Below are positions 4,101 through 37,949 of a stretch of DNA of 64,000 nt, in pieces (the stretch's first letter is position 1; every line of letters begins with the position of its first letter). Location of the stretch: NCBI GenBank assembly GCA_036172245.1, contig JAYWIR010000039.1, forward strand, positions 1,674,001-1,738,000, in the 5' to 3' direction. Both the position numbers and the translations under genes were made by a program. The notes below the pieces were generated by a model, which saw nothing but the letters and a program-made list of their open reading frames with translations, had not been told where the DNA came from and searched no databases. Source of the DNA: Raillietiella orientalis. Taxonomy: Eukaryota.

Positions 4101-7100
4101 AAGAAAGTATCAATTGCATTTTATATGTTTTAGTTTGTGGAATACAAGCAGCAAATGCGCTTAGAAGAAAAACGGAAAAAAGTTCTAGATCAACATTTGA
4201 ATTTCATTGTCAATCAAACTGAACGATATAGCTCTTGGCTAGCTGAAGGAATGAACAGAAGCATGGGAGTTTCCAATCAGGGTACTCCTTTGATGGAAAC
4301 AACAGCTTCCTTGGATACCAAGTTTTCGGACAGTAAGTGATTATTTAGATGGGCTGTTATACATTCGTAAATTAGCTGAGTTTGAACCAGATCAAAATTC
4401 TGATGACGACGAAACTACAATAGCAGCAGCAGAGCAAGAATTGAAAGGAAGGCATGATATCCAGGATGAAGTTGAAGCTTTAAGGAAAGAATCAGAAATG
4501 CCCCTGGAAGAATTTCTGAAGACTCTTCCATCTGAATTTCTTGATCAATCAGCATCACCTTTATCTTCCAAAGAAGGGGATACCACTGATTTGGAGGATG
4601 ATGATTACTCTGTCCATTCAGATGATGATGAAGATGACGACATTTCTATTCAAGAGCAAGAAGTTGAAGCTTCAGATTATCAGAAAGAATTAGAGGAGCT
4701 TCAGGTTTGTAATGAGAATTTTTAGCTGATAATGTTCTTATATGTATCTTTGCAGGTGGAATCCGATCTCCCTATCAAGGAACTCTTGAAAAAATATTCT
4801 GGCGAGAATTCCCCTCCAGCTACATCTAATGATGAGAATTTTGAAGAAAAGCATGATCCCCAGTCATTGCCTGACCAAGAAATTGGCTTGGAAAGTTTGT
4901 TAGAAGAACAAGAGGTAGCTTATTTTTTCTTACTCAGTTTGTTTATTTTACATTTAATACAATAGCAGAAACCACAAGAAATTAATGATGTTGCTGCTCT
5001 GGCAGAAAGTTTTCAGCCAAAAGGATATACTCTATCAACTACAGAAGTTGTCACTAAAGTTCCGTTTTTATTGAAATATTCACTCCGGGAGTATCAGCAT
5101 ATTGGATTGGACTGGCTGGTAGCATTATATGAGAAGAAACTCAATGGAATATTGGCTGATGAAATGGGTTTAGGCAAAACCATTCAGACAATTGCTTTGT
5201 TTGCTCATTTGGCCTGTGAAAAAGGTAATGGTTCCTCCAGTGAATGCTTTTATTAGATTTGCATTAGGAAACTGGGGGCCACATTTGATCATTGTACCAA
5301 CAAGTGTTTTATTAAATTGGGAAATGGAATTCAAGAAATGGTGTCCAGCTTTCAAGATCCTCACCTATTATGGGGGCCTGAGAGAAAGAAAGCAAAAGAG
5401 AATTGGCTGGACTAAGCCCAATGCATTCCATGTGTGCATCACCTCTTATAAGCTTGTAATTCAAGATCATGGTGCATTTCGCAGGAAACGATGGAAGTAT
5501 TTGGTTTTAGATGAGGCACAGAATATCAAGAACTTTAAATCACAACGTTGGGAAGTATTGCTGAATTTTAGGACTCAAAGGTATGAATATCAGAAAGCAG
5601 GCCTTCTGTTTACGCATGGTCTTAGTTACCTTTGGCAGTCTTACATGCTGCCCTTATCTTACTGAGTGCTTAGAAAAGAAATTGCGTTAATTGTTTCCCA
5701 TTTTCCAGACGATTGCTGTTAACAGGAACACCCTTACAAAACAGCTTGATGGAGTTGTGGTCCCTCATGCACTTCTTGATGCCTCATGTTTTCCATTCAC
5801 ATCATGAATTTAAAGAATGGTTTTCTAATCCAGTTGTTGGTATGATTGAAGGAAGCCAAGAATACAATGACAGCATCATCAAAAGACTCCATAAAGTAAT
5901 GCATGAAGATGCTCATGTGATTAATTTAATAAGGAACGTTAGGTTTTGAGGCCTTTTTTGTTAAGGCGATTGAAAAGTGAAGTTGAAAAACAGCTGCCCC
6001 AAAAGTATGAGCACATCATTATGTGTCGACTATCTAAAAGACAGCGTTTCTTGTATGATGATCTAATGGCTAATACCAAGTAAGTTATCTAACTGGATGA
6101 TTCATGATAAAATTTGTATTGTATAGAACAAAGGAAACCTTAGCAGCAGGAAATTACTTAAATGTACTTCATATTTTGATGAAGTTGCGCCAAGTGTGTA
6201 ATCATCCCAATCTGTTTGATCCTCGACCAATTGTATCTCCTTTGGTGCTTGAACGGTTGGTTTATTACATTCCATCTTTAGTACTTAGTGCACTGGAAAC
6301 ACATCCCTTGAAGGTAAATTAACATGCAACAAAAAGTTACTATGGTCTTGCTTGTAGCATGTTAATCTGAGTAGCATCAATGCCAATTTGCTACAGCTTG
6401 AAATGAGCATGTCTGCACTAGAAGCACATCGTCTTCGTAGATACAAACCACCAGTCAAAGTAATAGAAGAAGGTGTTGTTCATCAGACAATGCCTCCTTG
6501 TCCACCTGGAAAAGTTAAACTTCACATTCGAACATCAGAATCACTGATTGATACAAATGCTAAACTCTCAGGAACAAAACAAGAGTTGTGTCCAGGTAAT
6601 TTATTCCCTTTCCAGAGTTCTGCAAAAGTGGTATATTCTTGGTATTATATTGTTTTCCATATAGAAATAAAGATTATAGAGTATTGATTATCAGTTTCAG
6701 GATTGCATGAGTCTTCATTTTTGTGGGCATGAGACAAATTTGTGTGGATTAATTATCGTCAAATGTTTTAGTTTACGTATTTGTGCCTTATTTTTTCATG
6801 CTGTTTCAAAAACTTCGTTCTAGATACCTGATAGATTACATTCAAACGTTTTGCCCTGATTCCTCATTCTCATCCTTTTAGCACTCTATTTGTTAACTCT
6901 CATCAAGTTATGTCATTTTTTTGATTTATACCTTCCTTTTTATTTGTTGATTAAAGTGCTAAGTGATGGCGATGCCCTATTTAAAAAATGTTGCATGCAG
7001 TTTTGAGCTTATGTATTTCTGATACAAGTTGGTGAAATTCATTTTATAGATGCTGCTTCCTTCCTTCAAAGTTTGGCTAACCATAGTTTGGTCTTCAATC

Positions 7101-10100
7101 ACCAAGGAGCTACCAGAAGTATGTCAGTCGATGTAGTTTTGATAATTAGTGTTTTTCAGCTGTGTCTTTGGGCCAGCTTCTTCAATCAAATCAGAGCCTT
7201 AATCCTAATCCAACTCCTGTTGCATTGCATATTTTTCAAACTTCTCAAGGACCTCGAGTTATGCTTCCATCATCATTATATGGATCTCAAGGAAACCAAG
7301 CAGCTGTTCTGCTGCCTTCTACACGATCTTCATCAGTTGGTAAATATGGAAAATGAACTTTAAGTAAAATAATATCTGAACTGCAACTGTCAAATTCCGC
7401 CAAGTAAAGAGGGTTACTAAACTTGTACACTCTTTTCGTATACCTATAAAGTATGTGTTAATTTTCTTAAGATTCTTAATTGTCTTTTTCAAAAATTGAA
7501 TTTTGTAAGGATAAATGGATTACAGACTCACTGTCTTTGTCATTGAAACCATTACTTTTGGTTTTTCTGCTAATTGTACCCATAGAAGTTTGCAAAGAAT
7601 ATCATCGTATTTTTTTACTGTTGGGATCGGATGATCAACATGTTAATCATTGATTTTAATTAATGTTAAATGTTTCAGGCACCCCTGTGATATCTGTACG
7701 CCCTACACCAGTCCCTACTAAAACTGGTTCTTTGTACAATGCAATGGGTGCACCACATGTTTCATCTATGGGCCGCAGCTCATTGCTCAGACCAACAAAC
7801 GCATTAAATACTAGCATAGTACTGAGCAATAAGCATAATAAGCCTGTGATGCGAGTACCCCCTATGCGTATTCAGGATACCAATCAACAGGATGCAAGTA
7901 GCCAGCCACAAAATATTGTTAATGGTGATGTGTGGCCTGCCAAAATGCGGAAACTGGACTCAGTAGACAATTTTGAATTAGTAGGTTTTTAGATGGAATT
8001 TGTGATTTTAAATTTGCTGCAGGAATCTTTGGAAGCTATCAGGAATGAGGCTAGCAGGCGTCGATTAATGGGAATTGCAATGAGAAATTCAGTGCATTGT
8101 GAAGCTTGCCCCATCTTTGGAACTGATTTGGTGCAAGCTGTAATGTTAAATGATCAGAATTCTGTCTTGGATAAATTTAAGCGAACTCCTGAACAAGTAG
8201 TAGAAGAATTGAAAGAAATCTTTGAAAGGTAGAATCCATTGGTGCATATCTTCTTATAGTACCACTCATCAGATTTGTGTTCTGCATTCCTGCTGCATGT
8301 GCCTTACCCATCCAAATGCATGCAAGTCACCCACCTCCATCTTTGTGGTGGAGGGAGAAACGCTCTCAGTGCCTATTGCAAACTATGCTGAAAAGCAAAT
8401 TGGATCTTCTGCACTTGATAAGTTCAGCACAAGCCACTCAGTTTCCAGATCTTCGTCTAATTCAGTATGATTGTGGTAAGTATGTATTGTATTTTAGCTT
8501 GTAATCTTAGCTTCTCAAGTTGTTGGGTTTGCTGTAAATGTATTATGAAATAATCAGTAGATAATGACGCTTTTTTATTCCAATTTCGTGTATGTATTTT
8601 CAATATTTCCTCTTCCAAAACCACATAAAGGTTTTACGATTCATATCGAACATACTTTCATGCTTTAAAAGTTTTGATAATGGTTTTAATTTTTGGAACA
8701 TGCGCTATATTTCATCCTGAATTCATTTGAGTGGGCAGCACATATGAAAAACTTTTGATATCTCATCCTCGAGCTTTACAGACACAAAAATGGGAAATTG
8801 AATTCATACTAGATCGAACATGGATTAGTCCACATAACTGAATAATTCGAGTGATTCGAGCTTCGATTTTAGAAGTTATTGCTACAATATGAAGCTTGAA
8901 AACTAATTAAAAACAAAAATTCGGTGCTATTCAGTCTTGTGGAAGAACTTAATGTTTAAAGGAAATTAGTTTCATTTTAAAATATATTGGCATGTTCCTC
9001 TCCAGTCTCCTTAAATGTCAATCGAGTGGTGTTTAAACCGAATCCGAATCTTGGCAGTTTTATAACGAGGATGATATATACTGTGCTTCCGTGGAATAAT
9101 TTAACATGGTCAGAATTGATTTTGAGGCTATACAATAGCGAAGTTTTTTGATGTTTTATTTAAGAGAAAAATATTTTGAATAATTGCAGTAAATCCAATC
9201 TTCATTTAAAGTACGATTAGCAAATAAGCTTTTAAGATCTTTAAAGTAAATAATTAGTATTGTAATGATTTCTGCTTTTAGGGAAGCTTCAGCATCTAGA
9301 TGTTTTGTTAAGGGAACTACATCGGAATAACCACCGAGTGCTCATTTTCACTCAAATGACGACTATGTTGGATATTTTAGAAGAATTTCTGAATTATCAT
9401 GGTTATCGCTATCTTCGACTAGATGGCACAACTAGTGTGGATCAACGACAAGTAAGTTATGTTAATAAAGGAAAGCATTATGTTCTAATTTGTTTCCTTA
9501 TTCAGATGCTCATGGAGAGATTCAATGCAGACAAAAGAATATTTTGTTTCATTCTTTCAACTCGCTCTGGTGGAATAGGGGTTAATTTAACAGGAGCAGA
9601 TACTGTGATTTTTTATGATTCTGATTGGAATCCAACCATGGATGCTCAAGCTCAGGATCGCTGCCATCGAATTGGTCAAACAAGAGACGTGCATATTTAC
9701 CGTTTGATAAGTGAAAAAACTGTGGAGGAGAACATTTTGAAAAAAGCAAACCAGAAAAGACTGCTGATAGATTTGGCCATCGAAGGGGGTAATTTCACAA
9801 CTGCTCATTTGAAGAAGGTGATTGTTTTGTTTGATATTTCTATCACATTGTGTTTTGTTATTTCTGTGCAGCAAACAATTCAAGAGTTATTCCGAGTTTC
9901 CGAAGAAGATGATTCTTGCAAACGCATGTCAGAAGTATTGACTCCAGATCTTGATGGAACATTAGGCACTAATTTGCAAGTTGCACAACATGCTTTGGAA
10001 AATGCTCTAGCCACTGCCGAAGACGATCTGGATGTAACTGCTGCAAAATCGGCTAAAGCAGAAGTAGTAGCGGATTTGGCAGAATTTGATGAGAGTATTC

Positions 10101-13100
10101 CAATCTTGGAAAATGCTGATGAAGAAACAAGCAAGTCTGAGTTGGAAATGAAATCTCTCATGGAACAAGTGAGTCTTTGAAGTCACTTAATCTGTAACTT
10201 TGAAAATTTTAGTTGAGTCCTGTTGAGAGATATGCAATCAGTTTTGTTGAAACAGAACATTGGTCTGCTGAATTGTTGGCACAAGCTGAAGCTGAAATCG
10301 AGCAGCAAAAACGAGATTGGGAGCAACAGCGACTACAAGTTCTGAAGGAACAAGAGCAACAGATGGCCGAAATTGAAAGAAGTGAGGTGCTGACTTACTC
10401 CCGTGAGGATGCTACTACTCAGGTGACAACTAAAGGGAAGGGCCTTGTGAAAGAACAGGGAAGGGAGGAACGTATTTCACGTTTGAGCCGCCGACAACGT
10501 TCTATCCAACTTGGCCAAATGGTCTGTAAAAAAGTAAACCCTGCTGAGTCCCCCTTACTCAATCCATCTCTTCCATCTGAATCTTGTTCATCACCAGTTT
10601 TACTTTCCTCCTCTGAGCCACAAGCATCGGAAATCCCTTTGCTAAGCCCCCCTGTACAGCCTAATGTGGTATCAGTTGACAGTCCACGAACTCGATCTCG
10701 GGGAAGTGTTAGCATAAATTTGTGGACACTGGATGTGAGCCCGGTTTTGCCTGGTGTCAAACCAGTCACTGTTCATACTCGACGAACTTCCAAAGAGAAC
10801 AAAAAAAAACTTATTAATAATGAATCTTTTACTAGTGTGAAAATTGGTCATCGTACTGTGAACAAAGTTAATGCCCTCCATTCCTCTCCCAGATTTATGC
10901 TAAGGACAAGAAAAGTTCCCAAAGAGAAAAATCCAGGAGAACAAAATCACAAGAGTGCATTACCTCCAGGAGTCATACCATTAAGCTTATTAGAATAATA
11001 GGAATTGGGTAGCTGAATTACCACTTGCCAGATATCTTTCCCTTATCATTTATTGGATATTTGGCAATATGATGAAGTGCAGCTCAATAAATTATTATTG
11101 TGATTTGATTGGTCTTATTTCTTGGCCTTCCCCTGGGTTTGGTTGATAGAGTGCTGCTTGTAAGTTGGTATCCCTGGTTTTGGTAAGGTGCAGCACTACT
11201 TACCTATGCCAAGCCCAGGGGATTACCAAGTCATAAGCAAGCCAACCAAAATAAATATAAAGGTACTAATGTACCTGAGGGAGGAAACATTTATTTAAAC
11301 CGTACATGATGTAATTATGTACCCCAATTCTATTTGTAGCATTTTATTTAAGTTTCTCACTTGCTCTACACATTACATTGCATCACTATTGCTGATAATT
11401 TGGTCATGATTGATAGATTGTTGATTGGTTGAATTGTGTGCCAAAATGTTTTTTTCACTTGTGTTTTCCAATCATAAGCTGAACTTTGTTCTTATAGGTA
11501 TGGGAAGATTGGTTGACAGGAGAGCCAATGCCAGTAAGTAACTTGAACAGACAAACTGTAGAATTCTCTAAAATGCATACTTTAGCTCTGGGCTCCACCG
11601 ACACCTCCACATGAAGCTGGTGATATCTACATTGATCAATCACTCAACTTTTTGTATGGAACCGCCATTCTTGCAGAAGCACAGCTCCCTCCCATTTACA
11701 TAAAAAAAGAAACTGTTAAGAAACCCAAACAAGAAGCTTCTAAACAAATTCAGCATGCTTCTCTGTCATGTTCAGACCCCAAAGGTAACCTTGATTTTGT
11801 CACTGTTTGCTTAAACGCAGATGTCATTAGCTTTGCTTCATCGGCCTGGAAAAATGCGAAAAGAAGACTCACTTTATGCCCCGCGCTCATTATTTGATCG
11901 CCCTTCCCCAACTATTGCCAAGATGCGTCGAGATGCGAAGTTGCAGAAATTTAGAGGAATTGTGCGACCTTCTGTTGCTCTTCCAGGATTTCGATCCTTA
12001 TCAAGCAAGCCATATGTAGAAACAGAAGATCAACCTGAATGGCTCATTCATGAGGAATGGATCCTTCTTCAAATTATACAAAATCTGCAACAACTTCCTT
12101 TGAACCTAGTTGTTCTTTCTCCTGGCCATACTCCTAACTGGGATATGGTTGCAGATATGCTAAGCATAGTCACTCGAACTTACAGGTCCCCTAAGCAGTG
12201 TCGACATCACTATGAAACAGTTCTTATCCCAAGAGAAGAAGGAAAATTAGTGTACGATTCGTTGCCCAAAAAGTTTAAAAAACAAAAAAGCCCCCTTAAG
12301 ATTGGCTCAGCGGTAAACACACTATGTAGTTTTTTCATTTGACTTCATATTTTCTTTATAGAGTACTAGAACGATGAAAACATCGCAGCTGTATCTGCAG
12401 GACAATCATAGCAGCTTTACTAACATGTACCATGAATGTTTCGAGATTATTAGGTCACTAGCAAAAAAACGAACACCAACAACGAAATCAATGTTTATAA
12501 CACCTGTGGTTAAAAACCCAAAACATGCTGCAGTTCTCGCAGCTTCTGGCATAAACTATGATGCTCCATTGACCCCGATGCAAGTCGCTGCTAATAGAAT
12601 GGAACGTCTGGCTAGGGAAAAAGAGAAGCATTCTCAGGTGTGTGATTTCTTGGCGAACACTAATAAGTATTACATACAGCAAACTACGGAGTTGGCCATG
12701 CAGAAACGCTTGCAGCAAGTTACTAAACTGAGGTCTTCTCCTGTGCCAACGGTTATTCCCCTAAATGTGACATACAGTCAGTCATCTGCAATGTCTAGTA
12801 CCCCATCCAATCTAGCATCTGCTTTACGAACTGAGCATGATGCACGCTCCAGCAATCCAACATCCAGTGCTGTAGTTACTCTAGCTGGACTTACTTCTGT
12901 TCAGGTGCAGGGTAACCGTATGACAGTGGCAGGTCCTTCAAATCAAGTCCCTCGAGGTTTGTAAACCACCATCTCCTGTAGTTGTAACAACACAAAATAC
13001 AGCAGCTTCTCCAGGAACCAATCCCACATTGATTCAGACATCCAACTGCACCAAAACGCTGACACCTGCTCAAATTCAGTACCATAGGCAACAAGCATTG

Positions 13101-14458
13101 CTCCGTAAACAGCAGCAAACTTTGCAAGAACAGCAAAAATCCCAACAGCTGAAACGAGTACAAACCACAACGCCCATGATGCAAAAGGTTGCTATCTGCT
13201 ATCCATGTTGTTTATTGTTTTCTATAGACTAGTGGACGATCCATGTCAGAGACAGATCTGGCACTTTTGCGTCGTAAAGCCCAGCTTGAAGCCACTGCCC
13301 AAATCTTAACCCAAGGCAGCATTCAAATCCAGCAAGGCAGTCCAGGTTCCAATTCTGTGGCAGGCCTAGTGAAAACCTCAACAGTTTCTATCCCTGTATC
13401 TGCTATCAATGTGGCTAGTATGACCTTGCCACAAGTGAAAACTACCTTGACAACCACCAAACCTGCTGGTACTCATCAAATACGGCATATCGCCATCTCT
13501 CCCCAATTGCTTGGACCACGAAAATCATCCCTTCAGCAACAGAAAGTGGCTTTAGCTCAGGTTTGCTCGCAGAATGGTCGTATTAGCATTTGGCTGAATA
13601 GGTATCCAGCAAAACAGGGCTTCCTCAGCTCAGTGCTGTTCAAATCGTTGGACCCAAACAGCTGCCCACTGTCACAGTCCAACAGGTGATCAGACAAGTG
13701 CAGCCACAAGCTCTGCATCAATTTACACAGGTAGCCCTATACTGCCATGTTAAGAATAATCATTTGAATTTGAGCAGGTGTCTACACAGGCACAAGTTCT
13801 ACCTCAGGCTATTTTAAGCAAAGCAGCAGGGGCTCAAGCAGTAGCTAGCCCAAATCTTGCTATTGTAGGAGGCTTACAGCCATCCACAGCTAGAGTAGTA
13901 CCTCAGCAAGCTCAGTGCAAGCAAGTGCAAACCATCCAAGTGGTTTCAGCAACTCCTGCTTTGCAACAAGCACTAGTCAGTTCCCAGAGTAGAATTCAGA
14001 AAGGAACTTCTGGTAATGCTACCCCACAGCAAGCGACCATTCTATCTGCTTTGCAAGGACATCCTCTTTCCTTAGCTTTACGTTCTCCAAACCCTAGCAC
14101 AGTACGCTTACAGGCACCTGTATGTATTAAGTATTTTGAAAGAAATCAAGTAATTGTGCATTCTCACATTAAGACTCAGTCAAGTGCATCTTCTTCATTT
14201 GTTGCAACACCATCATCTAGTAATCAAGCAATTGTTACATCTCAAACTATGTCATTCTCTGATTTTGCTTTATCTGACAATCTTGAGGTAATATTTTGTT
14301 TTCTTAAATGCAGGTTGATTTGGTAATGCTTTTAGTCATCTGAAGAAACTGATCTAGATAGACGTGTGAAACAGATTATTAAAACCGTTCAGCAACAGCA
14401 ACAGCAGCAACGGACAACCAGTTCTTCAAGGAAAACTGGATCCAAGCATGTTTCATAG
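1104..14458 (+). CDS. dom: Helicase domino / p400-like SWR1-family chromatin remodeller, long (DOM-A-like) isoform, multi-exon
   Basis: Spliced exons give an HSA region ([52 protein letters not shown]), a split SNF2 ATPase ([78 protein letters not shown]), then p400-type [16 protein letters not shown], a SANT/Myb domain (PEWLIHEEW...TPNWDMVAD...[10 protein letters not shown]) and a Q-rich tail ending in TAG at 14456-14458. An AG lies just before ATG 1104, so an upstream exon may exist. Confidence 0.95.
10213..10998 (+). CDS. dom: Alternative terminal exon of domino, short (DOM-B/SRCAP-like) isoform made by read-through of the donor at 10423
   Basis: The ORF stays open about 190 codons past CAG|GTGACA (10422|10423) and includes [21 protein letters not shown]. 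It ends in TAA TAG, with AATAAA at 11086 and 11250. The long isoform instead splices to a 36-nt exon at 11498-11533 ([12 protein letters not shown]). Confidence 0.8.
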   Translation: MSPVERYAISFVETEHWSAELLAQAEAEIEQQKRDWEQQRLQVLKEQEQQMAEIERSEVLTYSREDATTQVTTKGKGLVKEQGREERISRLSRRQRSIQLGQMVCKKVNPAESPLLNPSLPSESCSSPVLLSSSEPQASEIPLLSPPVQPNVVSVDSPRTRSRGSVSINLWTLDVSPVLPGVKPVTVHTRRTSKENKKKLINNESFTSVKIGHRTVNKVNALHSSPRFMLRTRKVPKEKNPGEQNHKSALPPGVIPLSLLE

Positions 14459-19107: not shown

Positions 19108-20265
19108 GTAACTTTGGGGTTACGACGGCGTACAACTTTTGCACTTTTGCGTATATAAAAGCTTAACTATGGAATTCCATAAAACAGTTTGTATTTGGCG
19201 TTAAACGTAGATGTACGTTGCATTTTGAACATTTTGTTTTTGGAACTCCTTTGCATCCCGGCTTTTTTCAGCGTCCCCTCTTATCCGAAAAGACTGGCCA
19301 ACGTGTAATTCCACCTTTTCGCACGTTTTCAACTGGAAGTGTTGCATTTGTTCCCCTTTTCTTCTCCTCTCCTAACTGTTCACCTACAGTAGTTGAAATA
19401 GGGCGTCCTCTTTTCCTACGAATCCCTTTTCGCTCTTGGCATAAACAAGTTGCAATGAATTGTCCTATTCCGTTAGACGAAACACGTATTGGTTTTTCTG
19501 GATCACCTTGCAGTGCATTTGTATTGGTATGGTCAACTGTATTACTCATAATTTCCTCATCAAATCATTTTCGGAAATGGGTCATAGGAGAGTAGGGCGC
19601 TTCAGGATCTTCAGCACAATTTCCTTTTCAAGGAAGACGATGAAGACTGTTTTTCGGATGGGATACGGATTGCCAAGAAATTCTTTGTGATGTTGAATTT
19701 TCATCATCTGATGATCATTCCCCACTCAATTCAGCGTCCCTATCGATAATATTTATGCGTCGTCGGATAAACTCTGTTGGCCGATCTCCGTCCGAGTCAG
19801 ATTCTAATGAAGAATCCACGGATCCATTACCGCTGATGCTACCACTTATTCTTACTACCTTTCTATTTTTATATGCTTCGGTATTCATACTTTAGGCCTC
19901 CAATATATAGAAATAAAAAGGAAAGCATGGAAAGTGCCAACGCAAATACATCGCATCCTACCCTTATGGCTCAAAGACACAAAGCTGTATCACGTGAAAA
20001 TAATAACAAAGTGTTTGTCTCAATGGAAACAAATGAGAGATCATTGATACACAAAACAAGAGCTATTAAGTAGGCCTTTTCTTGTTTACCAAAAGACCGA
20101 CAGAACAAAAAACATCAACAACTGCAGAGGATGGTTCGCACAACTTTTATCTACGGACAGCTCGCAGAAGCACATTTACCTCGATCTCTCGGGTTCGAGT
20201 TGACATCCGTCACCAAGGAGACGCTATACAACAAGATGTGTACGCCACCTTGCGGTAAAAAATAA
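19108..20265 (-). mobile_element. Non-autonomous piggyBac (PGBD3-like) derivative with internal deletion
   Basis: The minus strand encodes an acidic N-terminus and SPMTHFRK*FDEEIMSNTVDHTN...PEKPIRVSSNGIGQFIA fused to RKRGRP...RGR*KKPGCKGVPKTKCSKCNVHLRLTPNTNCFMEFHS*, a piggyBac Cys-rich C-terminus. Inverted core GGCGTACA (19127-19134) / TGTACGCC (20239-20246) lies near the ends. Confidence 0.75.
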
Positions 20266-20444
20266 AGCACATCAATAAGATATGCTTTTCAAAGTCACAC
20301 GGATCTATAGGGAGTTGAGCGACAACCGCCATCAGGAAATGCTATTTCGCTCTACATTTTCTCTTCCTTCCAGACTGAATTACTCATATTTCCTGCATAT
20401 AGGGTCAACTTACACACAGGGCATCAATTCGCAGTGCAAACTGT

Positions 20445-21387
20445 GGAACCATCCGCAGTGCGTGTGGCACCATGCGTGCCCGCGTCGGAGGCCTTGTGGT
20501 TAAGGCCTCCGCGTGTGGCACCATGGGTCGCGAGTTCGAATACTTCGGCAGAAACTGAGACGCCGCTGCGTCATTGGGTTCCGAGTTTCTCCTGCAAAGG
20601 CGCTGGTTGGCCTAATCATTCGGGCGTGGCACCGGCGGTGGATTAAGCCGGAGGCCCCCGATGAAGGCCGGAACAATGGGAAATTGACCTTCGGGTCCTC
20701 CCAGGAATCAAGGAGTGGGGAGTTCCCCCTCCTGTCGTGCAAAGGAGAGCGGACCCCCCGCACCGGGGGACCCTCCGAGTCGTCGCCTCTTCACAGAGTG
20801 CACAAGGAAGCGAGAGCGATTCCCTGCGGGAAGGTGCAGCGCCCCTTCTGAGTTTCGGAAGCGTCCCTTCGGGGTTCTCTTCAGAGGAGTGAATAGGAGC
20901 GGTTCCCTTGAGGGTTCCCTCAGGAGAAGAAATTCCTACAAGCGGATCCTTTCCGGGTTCCCTTCGGAGAAGTTGAAATGAAGTTGAAATGGAGAGGACA
21001 GCCTCTCCCCATTGGTGGGGGGGTGTCCCTCCGGAGAGAATGAGGAAGGAGGATTCCCTTCGGGGTTCCCCTTCGGAGACAACCGGGGTGGGAGGTGCGA
21101 TCCCCCCCGTCCGGGGGGATCCTTCCCCAAGCGTGAGAGGAACGGACTCCTAGCCCTTCCTGGATTCATAGGGAGGACCCCCATCCCGGGGTGCCCCCTA
21201 TCCTGAAGAATTACACGCCCTCCTGCTGGCTGCCGCGGGCGGAGGGGCGTGGAAACAAAACAGTGTATTTAATGTTTAAAAAGAGCCACTTGCGCCGCGA
21301 GGCACGCGACCGGTTCTGAGGTATTTAGCGAATCAAAATAAAAAAAGAAAACTCTTAAAAAAAAAAGCTGGAAGGAAAACAGCAAAG
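20445..21387 (+). mobile_element. tRNA-headed, GC-rich, highly structured SINE-like retroposon with 14-bp target-site duplication
   Basis: Exact direct repeat GCAGTGCAAACTGT at 20431-20444 and 21388-21401. A-box-like AGGCCTTGTGG (20489-20499), B-box GTTCGAA (20534-20540), a hairpin-rich body and an A-rich 3' end (~21336-21387). Confidence 0.75.
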
Positions 21388-21401
21388 GCAGTGCAAACTG
21401 T

Positions 21402-24000
21402 ACAGGAAAGAACCTGCACCTCATCCACCAAAGTTGGCGAGTGGACACTGCAGAATCGCGCATGGGTCAATTTTTCCTGTTAAGAACAGAAAAGGAGGAT
21501 CCAATGGCTTACATCGCAGAACGCAGATTCATTTGCAGAAGAATCCTCTGGATTGGAATGCTTTACAGAGAAGGCGTTGCTGTTGCCTAATGAATCGATA
21601 ATCTATAATGTCCCTCTTTTCAAAACGGATGATCTCGAAGAATATCTAGAGACCCTGGGGAGTTCCATCCGGGAGATCAAAACGAAGAAGAGTCAGAGAC
21701 GAGAGGAAGTGATCGTTGAGAAACATATCTAGGAACAAATCTTTTCTCGAGGCTCAGACTGCTCCGCGCTCGCTTCTGGCATCCAGAAGAGGTTTAGCAA
21801 CAGACTGCTCGTGTCGTTAAAAGCCAGAACTAGTTCAGGTGGATGGAGAAAAAGCATCCAGAAGTTTCTAAAAGTGTCTGCACCCACTAACATAAATTGC
21901 AGAGTACACTTCTTGTGACTACAGAACATGTCCCCAAAGGTAGCCTTTTGCAGAAACATACTGTAAAGAGAGAACCAATCTGATAGTCCCATCTTCACTG
22001 TTTACAATCATCCATGCCTTCGCCCGCTCGGTTTCTTCCGGACAATACCCAACTCAGGTCATTGGGGTCATTACCCCAATGACATAAGACCTAGAACGCT
22101 AAAGGAATGACAGGCGGATACGTGAAACACTTAGCCCGGAGTGACAAAAAATCAAAGACAGTTGGTACATTATGATTTGGAAAAAAAAATGGAATCGTGA
22201 AAGAAATACAACGAAGTCTACTCTTATGTTCTTGTTTGCTAAGTGATTTCGAAGAATGGTTAGCAGGAACCCTCATGAGGCTGCAATGCAATGCACTGAG
22301 ATAGGTCATCAGCCGGAAACTTTTCAGACGGGGTAGGAGAGTGTCTGTAACTTGAGAAGCTTCGATTCCGCACACAAATCTAAAAAGACACAGTGATCGA
22401 CAAAGATGGAGTGAATTAAGGAGGCTGTCGACGGTGCAGTCTTGTGCTTTGCAATTTCCATTTCCTGAATACGTAGTGGGAATATGCTGAACTATCTGCT
22501 ACATGGTTCATGAGACCTGCGTGGCGGAGCCGGTGGGGGGCACTCAGCTTTTCGTTGTTCATGGCTATTACCCTGGATATTCCCTAGCCATGCGAACGAA
22601 AGCAAAGAAGCCCACTGTATGCTGAGAAAATGTTGCGGAAATGCATTTACCTTGAAAAAAAAAAATGCATCGAAAATGCAGACAGCAATTCAGTGGAAGT
22701 GATCCTTGTAATGATTCTTAAGCTCCCATAAAAGCGACATGACTCCACACTATAGTCAGTCAGAGTACAGTTTCTTTGGACCTGCTTGAAAAACGTGCAG
22801 CACGAAGGGAGACTTTTCTACTCCAGGATAGTAATTAATTGCACATTGTAACTCTGTAAGGTACTTCACGAGAGGGCAGTTGTGCTTTGGCTTACTAGCT
22901 GCTTACCTTGTCGATACTCTGAGTGGTGTACGGACTATATGACTGATGATTTAGGGACAGTACTGTTGCATTGTGTTTGATCTCTCAAACTGTGTACTAG
23001 GCTTACACCACGTCCATCCTAGCTACAAGCACCCTGTGGTTTCCTAGATCAAGAACCAATCTTCTATCGATTTCAGCTGGACTAATCTAATGGATGGTAA
23101 GAGAAACGAAGATCAGTTTCTTCGTTGGTGGCTACGGCGACTATAAATTCCCGTTTTCCCCAGGATGAGTATTCTTGAAACCCATACATGAACGGGATTT
23201 GATGAATACGTATAAATTTTGATCGTAGGAAGAGAAGACTAATGAATTTCTGATTCATGCATCCCTAACGGGACAGCATATTTCAAAATAAGATGTGTTG
23301 GATGAAACACTCGTCCTCCATATGTTCTTAACTTCTTAGAGCTCCTCACTTTGCATTTACTCATGTCACAAATATCTGGAATCTTGGTACCTAAAATTTA
23401 TAGAAATATCTGAAAGATGAGAGGTAGTTTATTCCTTTGTCTAGGAATAGGAACCAAATGGATGTTTCTCCTTTCCTTCCTCAACAGAAGGGAGAATACA
23501 CTGCTTCTGAGTTGGGCTGTTTGGTTCCAGATGTCCCCGCATTCATTCGAACGGGATGTATTTTCATTCTGAAATATGTTCAGATCTCCACGCTTCACTT
23601 TTCATTCCAGATCTTTGATTAATTAGACGTACCTCCATCCTCTTGTGGACTCTGGTTACTGGGAGAACACTGAGTACCAAACGTACACTGTTCCTTAAAT
23701 GCTTGCACTCAACTGTACAGAATGCCGCTCAGGCTAGCTACTACGATACATGGATATGGAGTGTGTTATCAGTTGCTTTATAGTATCCTTCCTCAAGAAG
23801 CGTCCAACGCTCTGCTAATCCACAGATATGCTAAAGTATATCAGAAAGAAAGAGTAGCGTTTTTTAAACTTCGAAGATCTTGAATTAGGTTGCCATTTGT
23901 CATTGGTGGCGATTCTCCCAGACGAATTTCCATAGAATTGTCGTAGAGTTAGGATGGTCGCTCTCCATCAGAGCTAGCTCATGTCATCAGAAACGTGTAG
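21402..24000 (+). mobile_element. Degenerate L1/Tx1-like LINE remnant (ORF1-like, EN-like and RT-like pieces); probable host of the SINE-like insertion
   Basis: IYNVPLFKTDDLEEYLETLG (~21601, ORF1-like), LLSDFE (~22235, cf. LGDFN), FLDQEPIFYR (~23041, cf. LDQEKAFDRV), VLDETLV (~23296, cf. FADD). Heavily interrupted. Confidence 0.45.
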
Positions 24001-27000
24001 CAGTTGATGTAAGATTCCACGAAGTTCTTATTTAGGATTACAGATCTGTTACAGCTGTTAATTAGATTCACGGAAAATACGCAAATGGATGCAACAATAT
24101 TTTTCATGAGTGAGCGAGAGACTTGAATCTGAGACTTGTTTAGCTTCCTATGTAGTCATGAGGTGATTATTCTGTCAATGTTGTAATATCTCTTTTTCAT
24201 GTCTTCTCTGCAAAAGTATGTGGCCTTTTTTTTTTTTTTTCGCCACTTCTTCTCTTATGAGTTTTAAAGAAACTTCTTATTTGAAATTATTCAGGATTTC
24301 TCCAAGGATTCAAAAGTCCCCAATGAAAAGAATCGAGGAACTTTTCGCGCTCATTTCCGAATAGCATAAGAAAGGAGAGCTTAAGGGATTCATATGCAGA
24401 TTTTGCATTTGATTGCTCATCTGATTTTGCATCTGGTGAAACAGTAAGCTTCTGCAAAGCATGGAGTGCTAATTGTAGTCACTTTTCTGCATGATAGGAG
24501 CGGTGTCGGTTGAAAGTTCGGAATATGAAAAGGTTGAAAGTAACTGATCCCCAAATAAGAGAACTCGGATCCTGAATAGGCCAGACATTGACATCTATTT
24601 TTAATTCTTCTTTTAAAATGATGTGTACTCTGATATAAGTGTAATTTCGATAAACAAAAAATGAAAATCATTCTTCTCAAACATATGAGCTCTTCCTTAA
24701 CAAAAAGATGAGCTGAAACTGACTGTTTGAGTGATAGAAGTCCATCCATATATGAACCTGATTCTAAATCTATTTGCAAAAATATATCAAAGTTTCGTTT
24801 AAGATGATTGCATGCAAGTATGCATTCCATTAAATAACAAGGTAGTCTATTAAAAATTGATCATTTCAAACGAAGATAACCGTGAGCTTATGTTTCATGT
24901 CTCATATTAATCATAAACTCCAGTTCTTAGCTTCTTTTAAAAAAGAAATTGAAGTTAATAAGTGAGGAGACTTGCATGTGTCTGTATACACGCATTAAAA
25001 AAAAAAGGCTGGATATGATTGTAAGCCCTGATTCAACATAAGTTTTTTATTTATGAAGTTTCATAGCCTATGAAACTTAGTAAATAAACTCTAGTGAATT
25101 GAGCAGCATTAATAATTAACTGTATTCATTTTAAATAGACTCTAAAAGTATTTTTTCTTGAAATTAAATGATAATGTACATTGCTACTGCCTATTTTATG
25201 AATGTTTGCGAATTAATAAGGATCTTATATTGTGAATCAGAACTTCAGTGCAAGAAAAATGTCATATAAGGCTTTTCTGCGAAAGATTACGTTAGTTTTT
25301 GGCCTTCTAAATCTGCTAGATAGAAAATTATGCTTTCTCTTTGAGTGTCATCTGCAAGTTGCATCCAAGAGAAGCATGAGAAAAATTTTACGGGAATACA
25401 ATCTTTGCTAAGGGAATCATAGAAATACGTGTACTCTCTTTGTTTCAATTAAAACAAAAATTCATTTCTAGTGATCAGGAAAATTCTTTATGCCCATATT
25501 TGTAATCTGAGAAAATCACTTAATCGTTAGAATATCTTCATATTTGGGTTTCATCACTCACTCGCATTAATAAACTAAAGTACAAAGAATTACAACTTGT
25601 GTTGTTTGAAAAGCTGTTTTGTACAAAAATGCTGGACTTTCAGCACAAAGCAAGTCATACATGAGCACTTTACTAAGTTCAGAAAGCAAAATGTATTTAC
25701 ATGTCATTTAAAATTGTACAAAAGTCAGTGTCATTTCGTCGCCATTTGGTTTCACATGATTTTAACGTATATAGTCTTCATATCTTGTCACTCCATTTCA
25801 TAGATTCTATGATGAAACTACTTATGCTATGCTTATGACAGTCCCATTTTTTATGATAATGTTCTTTCACTTCTTTGAATACATCATTTGTTACCACTGT
25901 TTTTTTTTCTTTTTTATGTATCAGAGAAACTATTCACTTTGTTCTTTGTCGACTAAATTAGTTTCAAAGGCTTACAAAAGCAGTTTTCTGTTTTCTTTCT
26001 GTTTCTGTTTTCTTGATGAGTAATGCATGTTGTTGATTATATTTAATTGCTTGTAGTTTTGATTTTTCAGAATGCGAGCGTAAGGATTTATCTGCACTAA
26101 ATCTTCAGCTCTTTTCAAAGGGATAATGTGTTTATTTCAATACAGAGATATAGGGATCTATCGAAAAACAAGGAGAGGAAAAAAAAACTTTCAGCTTGCT
26201 ACCAATAGGAAATTCATGAATGCCGACCATATCGCAAAATATGTTTCCTCTCCTAGATAAACGCTGATTTCTAAAGTAATATGCAATATGGGAAACTTAA
26301 AGAGAAACACAAAACGAAATGAATAGAAAATTTTCGTGGAACGATATGAGTTCTGACAGTTTTACGGATACGTTACCAATCTGTTGGTACATGAATGAAC
26401 CGAATAGCGATAGAAAAGCAATGGGATTTTATGGCTTTGTGTGTTCACGTGAAACGTTTTCGAAAAATTTTTAACTTTGAAAAATATATTCATGACGTTT
26501 CTGCATAGTAAGATAAGCATAGAATAAATCAAGTTAGTTTTAGTTGGTACATTGAGTACTGCTTCACATTGATTGAAAAGGTGGTGAATAGCAATCATGA
26601 TATAATGTTGCATTACGTGGCAAATATTCAACTTTCGAACTTTTCGAGATTATGTTAACTAGAGATGAGGTTCGAAATAAAGTAGAATAATAAATGTACC
26701 TCTTAACAACAGCCGCACCAATGGTATTTAAATTAGGAATGTACTATCGTAGCCATATGCTAATGCATGAAAGGATTCAATTGGTTTTAAATTCACGAGA
26801 TTTTTAAATGTTGCCATTCACATTATGAAGTAATTTTGAAGTTATGATTCTGTTTAATTTAAAGTTATGACTCTGTAAGTCACAATAATTTGACATTTCC
26901 CTATTTAAGAAAAAAAGCCAGAATAATTATGACTTAGTGAAAAAAATTGATTTGGTAGTAGTAACCTCTGTGGTCTTTTATTTTTGTAACTTCTGTTTTT

Positions 27001-27283: not shown

Positions 27284-28666
<1,383 letters not shown>

Positions 28667-28721: not shown

Positions 28722-31487
28722 TCAATTTTGGTTATTTTCCTTTTGCTGCTGTTTCCACATTTGTGTGTAAATACCACCAATTTCCAGCAAATCATCATGT
28801 CTGCACCATTATTTTTAGATATGTGTATAACTGAAATGTCTTGTTTACCTGCCATGCTCCACTATCCTTCCTTCTGCCATTACAAAAATGTTGTTAATAT
28901 GCATAATGGCTGACAAGCAACGGGTAAGAATTAGAGTGGTACGATTTTCACCAAAGTGTTGGAGAACAGTCTGGATTATGCAGAAATTTAGCTCATAAAC
29001 TAGATATCATCTTACTAAAATATCGGCCTCAGTCTGCATATCTAATGTATTTGTGAATTCATCTAATACCACAATTTGAGGGCTCCTAAGAATTAATCTT
29101 GCTATGGAAACTTGTTGCTTCTCTTCAGCACTTAGCTTTAAGCCATGCTCTCCCACTTGTGTATTGTAACCTTTTGGATATGTAAGAATTTTCTCATGCA
29201 ACCCAGCAGCTTCAGCTGCACAGATCACTTCTTCTTCACTAGCTTGTGGATTGCCATAATGAATGTTATAAAGAATAGTATCATTGAACAATACTGTATC
29301 TTGAGAAACAACACCAACAGCTTGGCGTAGGGAATGCTGTGTGACATGCTGAATATTTTGATCATCAATCTGTATATTACCACTGCTAATATCATAGAGT
29401 CGTAGTAAAAGACGAAGTACTGTAGTCTTACCACATCCTTTAGGCCCCACCTAAAAATGTTTCATAACTGAACTTTCAAATACAGTAAACTAACCAATGC
29501 CACAGTTTGACCTGGAGTTACTTTCAGATTGAAGCTGGAGAGTACAGTATGTCCATTAGGAAGCACAAAGCTGACATTATTAAACCCAATGTTTCCATTG
29601 AAAACCCTCAAGTCGGGAGCATTTGGAACATCCTTCACTTCTTGTTTTTCATCTAGTAAAGCCAACATATCCTCTATGTCCACAACGGACTTTTGAATAA
29701 TCCTGTTCTTTCTTATTATATTTTTCTTGACTCCAAGCTTCAGTACCTGTAATATGTACCAAACCAATGTAGTGGCATGTACAGCTGTGCTAAATAAGTT
29801 AAGAACAAGACCAGATCTCCAACAGACTGCTCTCCATGGACAATAAAATATATGCTGAGCATGCCTCCAGCAAGCAATCCTCCATTCATGGCAACATTTT
29901 GCACTGTGTTTAGAAGAGATAGAGAGAGTTGCGATTTCCACTCAGCCTGCTGGTAAAACTGCTTAGCAGTTTGCAATCGTTGTACTTCATAAAATTCAGC
30001 AGTGTTGCATTTCACAGTTTCAATATTAAGCAAAGAATCTACAGCTTTCGATGACATTTGATTTTCGTAATTATTCTGTGAATGGCGAAACTTGGTCCTC
30101 CATGTGGTTATGATTATTGTCCCCACTAGTATTTCATTGTGTCAACTTTAATTCTGCTGACAACTGACCTAAGTATACAGCCATTGTGCAAGCCATAATC
30201 AAACCAAACCAAATGTTGAAGACTGTAGAAAAATAAATTGTTGCTATTATTATATCAGCGAAGATGGGGAGAATGTTAAATAACAAATAGCTAAGCAGCA
30301 TAATGGCACTTTGAACTCCCTGTTCCATAATGTGAAGAACTTCTCCAGTTTTTCTACCCAGGTGCCAACTTAAGCTTAAGTTGTGCAAATGGGAAAACAG
30401 TTGAACCTAAAGAACTTAACAGAAATGGCAAACAACGAAATTACTAACCTGCAATGTTAATGAGCTATATTGTTGGACACGAATCCAAAGAAAGTTGTGA
30501 ACACTGGTAATCAACCCAGAAGAAGCAAATCCTTGAAGAAGCTTCAAGAGAACAAATACACTTATGATATTCCAGCAAAAAACAGGGTTGACAGAAAGGG
30601 AATCAATAAGATGCTTGTAATACAATGGAATGAATACATTTACTACTCTTCCACAAACAAGTAGCATAAAGCATGCTAAAATCCGAAGTTGTAAGCAGCA
30701 ATCACGTTTTGGCCACAGATAAGGAAACAGAGTCTTTGCTTGTTTCCAAAATCGTTTTATAAAAGGTTTGCTTGAATGTGACTATGAATGAATTGAAAAC
30801 TTGTTAGTTTTCATGCTGATTACCTGCTGATCAATTAGAATGGGTGAGTAATATGATATTCCTGGTGCTTTGTAACCTAAACCAAAAAGTAGAATGCTTG
30901 CTGTAAATCTTAACACATACAAGGAGAACTCCATTTTGGTTGATACACTGAGCAACTCTATTAAAAAATTAAAAAGAATGAAAGACTTACTTCTGAAGAT
31001 TAAACCACCAATCTTCATGGTTTATGTTCAACAGCACAAGGCATTCAGATACAAGAACTAGAGTCCACAGTACAAATAGTACTAATCCATGTCCTTTTGT
31101 TGGTATTGTGGGGAGCATATAATGTCGCTCAATGTAAATTAATAAATAAGAAAATGGCCAAATAATATAACTGGTGAACAAGGGGACAAGCATGTACCCA
31201 TATAGCAAGTGAGGCTCTATGATGGAAATCTGGAGTAAAAACCTTGAAGTTGCCAAAACAGGCATACAAATAGTAAGAAATATCTGCAACTTGAACCAGA
31301 AGGAAGTCTTCCTTGGAAAAAAACTATAGCGTGTTGCATATCTTCGATAGAATAAATACTGAATAGTTCCAAATATCAACATAAAAGCACAAATAACCGC
31401 TGGTGTGACAGTCTCAAAAAAACAAACATTAAACCCATTCGGTGTCCAAAGGACAATGAAACTTTCGTTTTTTTGACAAAACTTCAT
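28722..31487 (-). CDS. ABCB6: ABCB6/HMT-1-like ABC half transporter (TMD0-TMD-NBD), multi-exon, with degenerate ATPase motifs
   Basis: TMD0 (MKFC...CFFETV...PTKGHGLV), TMD ([43 protein letters not shown]), NBD with Walker [11 protein letters not shown]-loop [12 protein letters not shown] and Walker B IVVLDE. The last exon ...[18 protein letters not shown] ends at 28722. Confidence 0.92.
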
Positions 31488-33599
31488 ATTTCTTATGCTA
31501 AGTGACACAGAATGTAATTCTAATGTTTCAAATAATGCTCTTCTTTTTCAGAGCTCGAAAACTTCGTTTCCCTCACATGACGGTTTGATTGAAATGACCA
31601 AATGTAATGCTGAGAGCTTCTTTTCACCACACATTGATGAACACCAGGCTCTGAATTACGCTTTTACGAGATTTTACAGTGCGAAGAAAACTGTCCTCGC
31701 TGAAAATTAATTTTCCTAAGGTAAAGTGTCCAAATGTAAGCATGAAATAGCCAGCAAAGCTTTCTGATGTGCAGATGTCTAGAACCATAACTAACGTTCA
31801 CCTTTCTAATTCTTGCCACACCATAAAAAACATAATTAAGTCGCAATTTACTATCGACTTCCACATTTTTAATGTTCAGAGTTTTTCTTATAAATATGAA
31901 ATTATTGTTCTCTGGGATTCCTTATAGTTTTAACAATTCTCAAGAAATAGAGTTAAGATATTATTTACTATTTAAGGGAAAACTGAATAAAGTTTGAGCA
32001 CAAAGAATCAATAAACAAAAAGATGCTATTACTTGAAGTGTTTTTTTTTTTTTGTAACAGTTGAAGCGATTGCCTAAAACTGAACAGTTTTCTCGTGCTA
32101 AGGAGAAAATGATTGTAATTCATATATAGAGACCATTAGCCATTCTCATATTCATTTACTTTGCAGTATGTAAACTGTGAAAATTAAATTATGAGAAGAG
32201 GTCAACATGATTTGATGAGTCTCCTCGATTTTTTGGTTAAATACAGTTGATGGTAAAAATTTGCTTTGCAAAGCTATATACTTTTTCAAAGAAAATTTTA
32301 TGGGATGGTGTTTTTTTTGCTCTCTAGTGAAAGTAATGTTACCAATGTTCTAATATTCAGAGAAACAACATGGAAATTCATTCTGAGACCAGAGCCACTT
32401 TGGTGCCCGCAGAATAAGGTAAGAAGAGATCTTTTGTTTCACATTAGTAAGCTTTTTGGGAGACGAATAGCAAGAATACAATTTGTTATTCTAGCTGTGT
32501 GTGCTGTTATTTATTCTAGCTCTCTTCTAGATAACGACGCTTCTTAGATGTTGCAGTCTAGAGTGCAGAAGAAATCGTGAAAAGTGTGCCATATGAGAAT
32601 AATACTTGAGAGAAGAAAAAAAATCATCGATAGTGTAGCAGATGCTCATTAATCCCAGATTTCATTGGAGATGAGTCCATTTCGTTTACTGTTTTAGAGA
32701 AAACGCATTTTACAGCCTAAACGTTTAAAATCAAACAAATTGCCGTTACCATTCTCTGTTTCACGAGTTACAATCGAGAATTTCATGCATTAAATTCCTT
32801 TACAGTTTATTTCCTTCGCACTCTTAACATAATAAATGGCACCACTAAAAAGGATTTGAAGCTAGATATCCCAATAAAAATCCATAAAGTTTTTTCTTGT
32901 TATTCAACTGGTCTCTATTTAAAAAGAAAAAATCATTACAAGTTAAACTCTGATATCTATTTCGAAAATTTCATTAAGAAATCAATACTGATGCCAGAAA
33001 ACTTTCAAATGTATTCAGACAAATATATGTGTTTCTCATACTTTAGAAATCACCATATGTAAGTCATAATTACATCTGAGGCATCTATGTGTTTCTTCGT
33101 TTCACAACTGAAAGGAAAATTTGATTTCTAGTAGGGAGCCAAAATAACTTTGGGAACTTTAGGAATTCCATTGTGTTTTACCAAAGTTATGTTCACTCGC
33201 AAGATATAAAACTGTGAAGGCTAACGGGATTCTTTATAATAGACAAAGCGAAATTAATATCAAATTATGACATGTATCTCTGGACCTTAAAAGTATAGGT
33301 TTTTGCTTCTCGTGTGTAGATTTGTCCGAAGATGACAACAAGAAATCATGAACCTTTTTTTAGCGTAGTAACAATTTGTATGTTAATCAAGAAGTTATTC
33401 ACGAATATATCCTCGCATAATATTAAATAAATTTCATTTTATTGTTGAAACACCACTTCGTATCATACTCATATTCTTCTCATAGAAATTCCAATTATGA
33501 TCAATAATGCAAGTATCATGGCATTTGGATTTCTCAATGTATAAATAAGAAAGAATTTCTAAAAGAGTGACAATCATGACTATATTGCAGAAAAATGGA

Positions 33600-36530: not shown

Positions 36531-37915
36531 TTTTCAACATGTGGTCTTCGCAGTCATCTACTTTTCGACTACTTGAATTTGAGATTGCATGCACTGAAAT
36601 TCACCTTTTTATATAGTTTTCTTATTGAGTATTTGGATATTTCCCTAATAATTTTTGGGTTTTACTTGTTTGTGTGTGTGTGTCTTTCTTTTTGTCCCCA
36701 AAAGATAATTTGCTTTGAGCTTCTCCCTTTGATAGGTATTATCTTCTTTTTCCTTCATTCATCTCTTTTGATTTGTTTTTGTTTTTTTCTTTCGATTCTA
36801 TCTATGGTGTGGATCTACCATGTTTACATCATAGACTGCTATATTTTCTCTTGAAAACCAATAAGTGTACATACTGATATAAATTTTTGATTCTGACACA
36901 GAATCAGGTAATACAAATTTGCCACTGGCACACTGGTTTTTGGTTTGTCAACTTGACCAGCGTTTGCCTTCCGATCGAAAAACCGTTAGGTTTCTGTCAT
37001 GGGCAGGTGAATCTCTTGAGTTTACACCTTCCTGCGTTTCAAGCTGATGAGCTTTACCGTAGACTAATTGCTTTCTTGTGCCAGAGACACAGTCAAGTGA
37101 GGATTGGAGGTGCGTGTTCGGAATCTGAGAAACCGAATCTTTGGTCAACAGCATTTCTTTCACGTAATTCACGGTCAGGGAGGCAGAACCTGGGAAGGAA
37201 CTCTCGTGATGATTTTACTTCAATATTTGTCCAGATGGACGTGTCATTACTGGACATGGTATTTTCAAGAAGAAAGTCAAAAGTAAATTGTTCTAAGGTT
37301 TTATTAAATTTGTGGAAGTGTTTTGTTGGCACTTAGAAGCTGTCCTTGGTAAAAATCGAGCATGTGTCGGTTGAATCTGTGGTAGCTGAGAAAATTGTGC
37401 GGAAGATATAATGTGCTTACTTGAATACATGATCAAAGTATGGTCCTATTCTCTGCATCTGACTCTGTTCTTTCTTATAGGTCTACTTTAGGTATATTCT
37501 CTGAATGCTGCAAAGTGTTTTTCGTCCCAAGACAGGCATATTCTTTGCAAAAACTTCCTTCCAAAATGCCTTTCCCATCGAAGAATACTGAGAGCAAACC
37601 AACTGCACTTTCTCGTGATTTCAAGAGCCGTTACGACTTTAGTTAAAGGATAGTAGAAATTACGATCTAATTCGAATGATGTTAAGAAATCAATCTTAGT
37701 ACTTACTTTCAATAAGACCTCCCTATTTGAAAGAGAAGTTTGATTTTCGATAAAGGAAACTTTTACGATCATTCTTTCTGCAGCTCAACACAATACGCTC
37801 TAATCAATGCAATGGATTTCAAATAAGGAACACATATATTCTAGTTTCCTTCTGTTATTTGTTTTGTGAGATCTGGAGGGTGAAGTTGCTGTCTTCTATT
37901 TGAGAACATGCATCT

Positions 37916-37917
<2 letters not shown>

Positions 37918-37947
<30 letters not shown>
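37918..37947. repeat. (GT)n microsatellite
   Basis: About 15 consecutive GT units. Confidence 0.95.

Positions 37948-37949
<2 letters not shown>

Follow-up and report, generated by a model that had tools for sequence, protein, structure and literature searches.

What is the GC-rich segment of about 0.9 kb that lies between two copies of a 14-bp direct repeat in the AT-rich DNA analysed here, and how did it come to be there? We addressed the question in a stretch of 64 kb (hereafter the window), for which an original prediction, made by reading the letters, had proposed a young, tRNA-headed and highly structured retroposon sitting inside an older decayed LINE. Our analysis suggests, with a probability of roughly 0.6, that positions 20445 to 21387 are one copy of a multi-copy, non-coding, non-autonomous, SINE-like non-LTR retroposon, with a discrete 5′ end and a preference for transcription by Pol III. 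The core of this reading, a non-autonomous retroposon copy mobilised by a LINE, is very probable when it is considered alone.

Under this reading, an RNA of ~0.9 kb that had a discrete 5′ end of its own was copied into DNA where the chromosome had been nicked in a staggered fashion, by enzymes borrowed from an autonomous LINE (target-primed reverse transcription, TPRT). The process duplicated 14 bp of the target and placed the A-rich 3′ end of the element beside the downstream repeat, a step that is as well demonstrated as sequence evidence allows. We infer, as a slight preference, that the RNA was made by Pol III from box A/B-like motifs in the head; it may then have been polyadenylated via AATAAA, by analogy with the T+ SINEs of mammals. 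The LINE enzyme was probably recruited through the A tail or through a stem-loop near the 3′ end, and the GC-rich middle would be a degenerate array of small hairpin modules, the number of which varies between copies.

Insertion anatomy

The whole window contains the 14-mer GCAGTGCAAACTGT just two times, at 20431-20444 and at 21388-21401, where the original prediction had placed an exact duplication. We take these two identical copies, neither of which is assigned a strand, as the 5′ and the 3′ target-site duplication (TSD) of a non-coding retroposon copy of 943 bp on the + strand (20445-21387), whose limits are those of a GC island and of homology to a DNA sequencing run described below, and which has no long ORF. 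Taken alone, the pair of 14-mers is at chance level: the window has two exact 14-mer direct pairs spaced 300-3000 nt apart, against a mean of 1.47 in 30 Markov-1 simulations. The duplication is convincing because the pair coincides with a step in GC content, with an A-rich 3′ end and with the edges of homology in the sequencing run. The inner edges of the pair lie within a few bases of the GC step. In 200-nt windows the GC content is 0.58-0.66 within the insert, against 0.36-0.46 in its flanks and 0.376 in the window at large, in line with the predicted GC-rich island in AT-rich DNA. The insert is itself uneven, with 61% GC in its first ~790 bp and 43% in its last 153 bp.

The insert 20445-21387 has neither terminal inverted repeats nor LTRs that we could find. 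It does have the two features that characterise a LINE-mobilised (TPRT) retroposon, namely a TSD on either side and an A-rich 3′ end adjoining the TSD. Together with the lack of a credible ORF, they bear out the proposal that this is a retroposed, non-coding and non-autonomous element. A longer TSD was considered and rejected: the duplication could not be extended past 14 bp, the score of the extended alignment being equalled in 78 of 500 shuffles. At a smaller scale, the 8-mer CGCAGTGC is found at 20430-20437, at the start of the TSD, and again at 20453-20460, 9 nt inside the element. This recurrence could be microhomology or coincidence.

A dispersed family

The evidence on other copies comes from one DNA sequencing run (X1; word share 0.06), whose species may differ from the host, and whose contigs were aligned to 20000-21900 at a likeness of at least 80%. 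They provided 113 contig pieces on this stretch (2 at 99% or more, 18 at 95-99%, 38 at 90-95% and 55 below 90%), with the proviso that contig pieces are not genomic copies and depth is not copy number. Homology is confined to the element: depth is present in every 64-nt bin of 20448-21407, and zero in 20320-20447 and in 21408-21791. The bin depths, from 5′ to 3′, are 16.5, 35.5, 35.5, 32.9, 45, 4.3, 65.9, 46.8, 17.1, 44, 33.5, 33.5, 12.4, 20.4 and 26.3. Most pieces (70%) continue into unlike sequence and, among the pieces listed, copies skip 52-204 nt of the element and vary in an 11-nt unit at 20969. From this one DNA run, and among the rows listed, the assignment of the element to a multi-copy dispersed family appears well supported.

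The original prediction had itself named a single-copy sequence, or a 14-mer belonging to the element, as findings that would speak against it. In X1 the element appears to be multi-copy, and the 5′ copy of the 14-mer is uncovered by the contigs (the bin 20384-20447 has depth 0) and therefore belongs to the target DNA, outside the element.

Searches elsewhere gave less. Within the 64-kb window we found no further copy, either by a repeat search or by blastn with a word size of 7 (best E 0.17). Exact and gapped DNA patterns of the element retrieved 0 loci in collections of metagenome, genome and viral contigs. No RNA sequencing run was listed with words of the element, the DNA run X1 being the only one. 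Literature searches, made by words and not by sequence, revealed no described arthropod family that fits, and the family may still be published.

The 5′ head

The first ~90 nt of the element form a long, near-perfect hairpin (20458-20537, + strand), built around a core inverted repeat at 20486-20495 and 20502-20511. When compared with shuffled sequences, its fold is exceptional: 0 of 200 shuffles match the -61.1 kcal/mol of the piece 20445-20560 (z -5.0), and the minus strand has a z of -4.4.

Motifs resembling the internal promoter of Pol III genes overlap this hairpin. The consensus is TRGCNNAGTGG for box A and GGTTCGANNCC for box B. The box A-like AGGCCTTGTGG (20489-20499) and the box B-like AGTTCGAATAC (20533-20543), both on the + strand, have 2 mismatches each to these, and their starts are 44 nt apart; the motifs are thus present at a tRNA-like spacing, as had been predicted. 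The box B of the family may be better than that of this copy, position 20533 being a G in most X1 copies (depth 39.3/42.3), which leaves 1 mismatch. Weaker box A-like 11-mers occur at 20465 (3 mismatches) and 20516 (2 mismatches). A box A/B pair of equal quality was found anywhere in 464 of 3000 simulated elements. Its position is more unusual: in a test devised post hoc, 291 of 20000 simulations had such a pair with the start of box A among the first 60 nt, and 91 of 20000 had it with a spacing of 40-48 nt as well. Such pairs do arise by chance, as seen in the window itself, where a second box A/B-like pair with at most 2 mismatches in each box (9571-9633, starts at 9571 and 9623, 52 nt apart) lies in a coding exon of a helicase gene.

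The box A-like motif lies at +45 of the element, and the weaker motif at 20465 lies at +21. Pol III start sites are typically ~10-20 nt upstream of box A, and the first ~25 nt of the element would therefore be left uncopied, unless the motif at 20465 is the one used.

The head was originally described as derived from a tRNA, and this part of the prediction found no backing in the programs that we used. ARAGORN called 0 tRNAs in the window at its default settings; when relaxed to 80, 70 and 60%, it made 30, 223 and 361 spurious calls across the window, none of which was 20482-20556. Rfam gave no tRNA, ribozyme, rRNA, snRNA, 7SL or 5S match in the 3 kb of 19500-22500 at E<=1, and no tRNA in the 181 nt of 20440-20620 at E<=10, where just two unrelated hairpins were matched. 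Region 20482-20556 folds into one long hairpin and a small one (z -1.97), not into the cloverleaf expected of a tRNA gene or pseudogene. Neither the covariance models nor the tRNA finder recognised the head as a small Pol III RNA, a surrogate criterion that we used for a SINE. A tRNA origin of the head is undemonstrated by ARAGORN or Rfam, and the box A/B-like motifs are best regarded as an indication. This is also the weight that SINEBase gives to boxes A and B (an indication, not a proof), its criterion for tRNA similarity being an identity of 60% or more with a tRNA across 60 nt or more (PMC3531059).

The 3′ end

The AT-richer 3′ region includes a stem-loop (21282-21317, + strand) on which the MFE and centroid structures of 21270-21387 agree, in a piece with a z of -1.12. 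This predicted stem-loop is a candidate for the site recognised by the reverse transcriptase. It is followed on the + strand by a polyadenylation-signal hexamer AATAAA (21337-21342), 15 nt ahead of an A run, and by TCTT (21353-21356) directly joined to A10 (21357-21366). The latter two together (21353-21366) resemble the terminator rudiment and oligo(A) of a T+ SINE. A purine-rich stretch of 21 nt (21367-21387, + strand) then separates A10 from the 3′ repeat. The predicted A-rich 3′ end with AATAAA is therefore there, but it is not a pure A tail, given these 21 non-poly(A) bases. Among the X1 contigs listed, one diverges at 21365 and goes on with unlike sequence; judging from this single contig, the 21 nt may be specific to the present copy, as a 3′ transduction or as filler.

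The + strand of the element has no TTTT, as originally observed, and the same absence occurred in 156 of 3000 simulations. A proper Pol III terminator (T4 or TCTTT) is lacking from the element. We also observed that A10+GCTGGA in the tail (21357-21372) resembles A10+GGCTGGA at 24997-25013, 3.6 kb downstream; the match (19 nt, 94.7%, E 0.61) is at chance level.

Body and coding potential

When folded whole, the element beats its shuffled versions on both strands (z -4.64 on the + strand and -3.51 on the - strand, 0 of 20 shuffles being as good on each). The signal is unevenly distributed. Four of the six pieces of body and tail fold no better than shuffles (20680-20800, z -0.83; 20840-20975, +0.97; 21020-21130, -1.06; 21270-21387, -1.12), and much of the apparent structure is therefore a matter of composition. 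Two stable hairpins at 21150-21260 (+ strand) stand out, with a z of -3.32 and 1 of 200 shuffles as good. The description of the element as highly structured thus fits the 5′ hairpin and 21150-21260, but not most of the body.

The middle of the element, from ~20810 to ~21090 on the + strand, looks like a degenerate array of modules, as judged from motif matches and from the skips in X1. Its recurring item is a doublet of a GGTTCCCTTCGG-like 12-mer, which has 11 matches with at most 3 mismatches and forms doublets at 20861/73, 20901/13, 20944/56 and 21052/64. The 12-mers lie inside units that are 32 nt long, at spacings of 40 and 43 nt. Tandem Repeats Finder left the array uncalled, and its sole call in the element was an 11-nt duplication at 20969-20991. 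The + strand has CTTCGG six times and CCGAAG zero times, the six not being independent because they belong to repeated modules. This strand-specific excess gives a hint that UUCG-type loops may matter in the sense RNA.

The element shows no credible ORF, in agreement with the original prediction: the longest sense-strand ORF that starts with ATG has 54 aa, and the ORFs of the element have no Pfam family (best match E 0.12). The longest frame, of 168 aa, is antisense. Homologs of this ORF numbered 0 among 223 word candidates at E<=0.001, and a set of 1.84 billion protein representatives returned only 3 weak matches (E 5e-5 to 5e-4). We rejected a coding role for it on these grounds, namely the lack of a Pfam family and of homologs, and the weakness of the database matches. 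The long stop-to-stop frames of the element are a chance product of its GC-rich stretch.

Among the 3 weak matches is a database peptide of 99 aa with an internal repeat of ~47 aa (P0133). Across 39 aa it shares 51% identity with the antisense translation of ~20772-20888, and it may represent a related repeat of another assembly. A protein-guided scan of genome contigs with P0133 found 119 stretches with the pattern. Of these a single one was confirmed: a bacterial MAG has a weak match (31%), which we judged irrelevant. A protein-guided scan of viral contigs found 8 stretches that matched the pattern, and 0 were confirmed.

Transcription and alternative explanations

The closest known systems are the tRNA-derived SINEs. 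The element is like them in being non-coding and multi-copy, with a TSD, an A-rich tail, box A/B-like motifs near the 5′ end and a layout of head, body and tail; like theirs, its copies differ by internal deletions and duplications. In contrast to them, it is 943 bp long, it has no detectable similarity to tRNAs, its box A lies at +45, and its head is a hairpin with a stem of ~30 bp rather than a cloverleaf. SINEBase formally defines SINEs as shorter than 700 bp and gives consensus lengths without tail of 75-662 nt (PMC3531059). With 943 bp between its repeats, the element is outside this formal definition and is unusually long, as had been predicted. We file it as SINE-like, known families having been compared by description and definition.

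In T+ SINEs, transcription by Pol III ends at TCTTT or TTTT and AAUAAA-dependent polyadenylation follows; TCTT ranks as only a 'rudimentary' terminator in these terms, and T+ SINEs are reported from mammals only, all of them tRNA-derived (PMC8466645). The element shares with the mammalian T+ SINEs (B2, Dip and Ves), as portrayed there, the order AATAAA, TCTT-type rudiment and oligo(A) in the tail, and the absence of an internal T4. It differs from them by its arthropod-like host, by the 21 nt that follow the oligo(A), and by having no T4 or TCTTT.

We lean towards Pol III because the box pair lies near the 5′ end, the box B is better in X1, T4 is absent and the tail has the order AATAAA-TCTT-oligo(A). 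On this evidence a Pol III-driven element is slightly preferred to a Pol II-driven one; against this, AATAAA suits a Pol II transcript equally well. The most specific version of the Pol III reading would be a T+-type retroposon of ~0.9 kb that is transcribed by Pol III and polyadenylated through AAUAAA, with a hairpin head and a body of UUCG-type modules, in a non-mammalian, arthropod-like genome. It is a long shot. If the Pol III/T+ reading were true, the element would be longer than any catalogued SINE, T+ SINEs would occur in a wider range of taxa than reported so far, and retroposons driven by Pol III would reach greater lengths. It would also provide a test of whether Pol III sustains retroposons of ~1 kb, and of AAUAAA-dependent polyadenylation of Pol III transcripts outside mammals. 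As it stands, the finding belongs to routine repeat annotation: an animal genome has a further family of non-autonomous retroposons.

The alternative that survives best is a non-autonomous retroposon transcribed by Pol II, polyadenylated via AATAAA and moved in trans by LINE enzymes. Such an element would be either an internally deleted LINE derivative, with a 5′ UTR joined to a 3′ UTR as in SIDEs, or a composite akin to SVA. We regard it as unlikely, while noting that it accounts well for an AATAAA 15 nt before the A run, for a length of 943 bp outside the range of SINEs, for the lack of tRNA similarity with a box A-like motif at +45, and for a module array that varies between copies (the skips of 52-204 nt and the omission of the 11-nt unit). 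Yet the box A/B-like pair so near the 5′ end is improbable by position, the sense strand is devoid of T4, and a TCTT immediately before the A run suits the rudiment of a Pol III terminator. Moreover, no LINE was found in the window. The surrounding LINE remnants that the original prediction had invoked found no support: 0 of the 88 fragments between stop codons (40 aa or longer) at 17.3-24.6 kb match a reverse transcriptase, endonuclease or transposon family (all E>=0.015, below the curated cut-offs), and the 36 long ORFs elsewhere in the window yielded host genes only, with 0 matches to a reverse transcriptase.

The two kinds of Pol II element can be compared with the insert separately. The SVA elements of hominids are long, non-coding and LINE-dependent, with a GC-rich internal array, an AATAAA, an A tail and a TSD. 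By this general description, the insert resembles SVA-type composites in being long, non-coding and presumably LINE-dependent, in having a GC-rich array of ~40-nt units that varies between copies, and in its AATAAA, A tail and TSD. It differs from them in that its parts show no sign of derivation from known elements, its array is short, degenerate and uncalled by Tandem Repeats Finder, and its host is unrelated. The SIDEs of Drosophila are short internally deleted R2 and R2/R1 elements, of which the R1-type have 14-bp TSDs (PMC3414825). That work establishes that insect elements of ~0.5 kb with 14-bp TSDs exist, and it invites a comparison: these are arthropod, non-autonomous, non-LTR elements in which the 5′ end is structured and the 3′ end is that of a LINE. 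However, as presented there, SIDEs are site-specific in 28S rDNA and carry the R2 ribozyme, whereas our element has no ribozyme or rRNA match and its target is not rDNA.

The insert could also be a 5′-truncated copy of an autonomous LINE that kept only a long 3′ UTR, for which a TSD and an A-rich end are equally typical and no ORF is needed. This is very unlikely in view of the X1 data, in which depth does not climb towards the 3′ end of the element. Among the X1 ends listed, no loose end at the 5′ boundary is shared by several contigs; there are singletons and one internal end of 9 contigs at 20857. In addition, the strongest structure of the element, the hairpin head, is placed exactly at the 5′ end.

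Scarcely credible, in turn, is a processed pseudogene that arose by one retrocopying event from a cellular transcript (an mRNA or a long non-coding RNA): the TSD, the AATAAA, the A run and the absence of introns and ORF would fit the retrocopy of a non-coding transcript, but 113 diverged X1 pieces with internal length variants indicate a dispersed family, and the element has no Rfam family match and no protein homology. TSDs of DNA transposons and LTR elements are generally shorter than 14 bp. The idea that nothing was inserted, and that a chance 14-mer pair (two in the window for 1.47 expected) flanks a GC island of another nature, perhaps a DNA transposon or a GC-rich local repeat, is highly improbable: the GC step and the limits of X1 homology both fall within a few bases of the pair, the A-rich end abuts the 3′ 14-mer, there are no terminal inverted repeats, and 14 bp exceeds the TSD lengths just given.

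Genomic surroundings

The SINE-like retroposon copy that we favour appears to be a fairly recent insertion between a SRCAP/p400-like gene and an ARF gene, but its recency, or youth in the terms of the original prediction, is loosely supported: an intact TSD (14/14) allows up to ~10% divergence, the A run is short and interrupted, and only 2 of the 113 X1 pieces reach 99%. Its presence or absence could be used as a marker.

The left flank (20064-20319) is also repetitive in X1, with bin depths of 0.69-11.4 and loose ends at 20249 and 20290, so that the element inserted beside or within another repeat. This flank has no transposon protein domain. Further downstream, the block 35000-44500 has a raised GC content (0.40-0.53 per kb, against ~0.32 around it), and both of its strands carry numerous overlapping ORFs (90-205 aa), of which 0 of the 26 tested have a Pfam match. 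It may consist of other non-coding repeats or of an unannotated element.

The neighbouring genes point to an animal host, most likely an arthropod. Upstream of the element, Pfam domains identify a SRCAP/p400/domino-like helicase (EP400_N and Helicase_C; 1092-14323, + strand). Downstream lie what we take, from its ORF, to be an ARF-like first exon (27284-27487, + strand) and a mitochondrial-type ABC transporter (MTABC_N and ABC_tran domains of Pfam; 29010-31547, - strand). They are followed by a TAF13-like protein with the Pfam domain TFIID-18kDa (47667-48014, - strand), a JmjC protein recognised by Pfam (50641-53354, + strand) and a single-exon TRUB2-like pseudouridine synthase (54073-55080, - strand), whose best named relatives are from arthropods, at 31-45% identity. 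These host genes have long exons and a compact structure.
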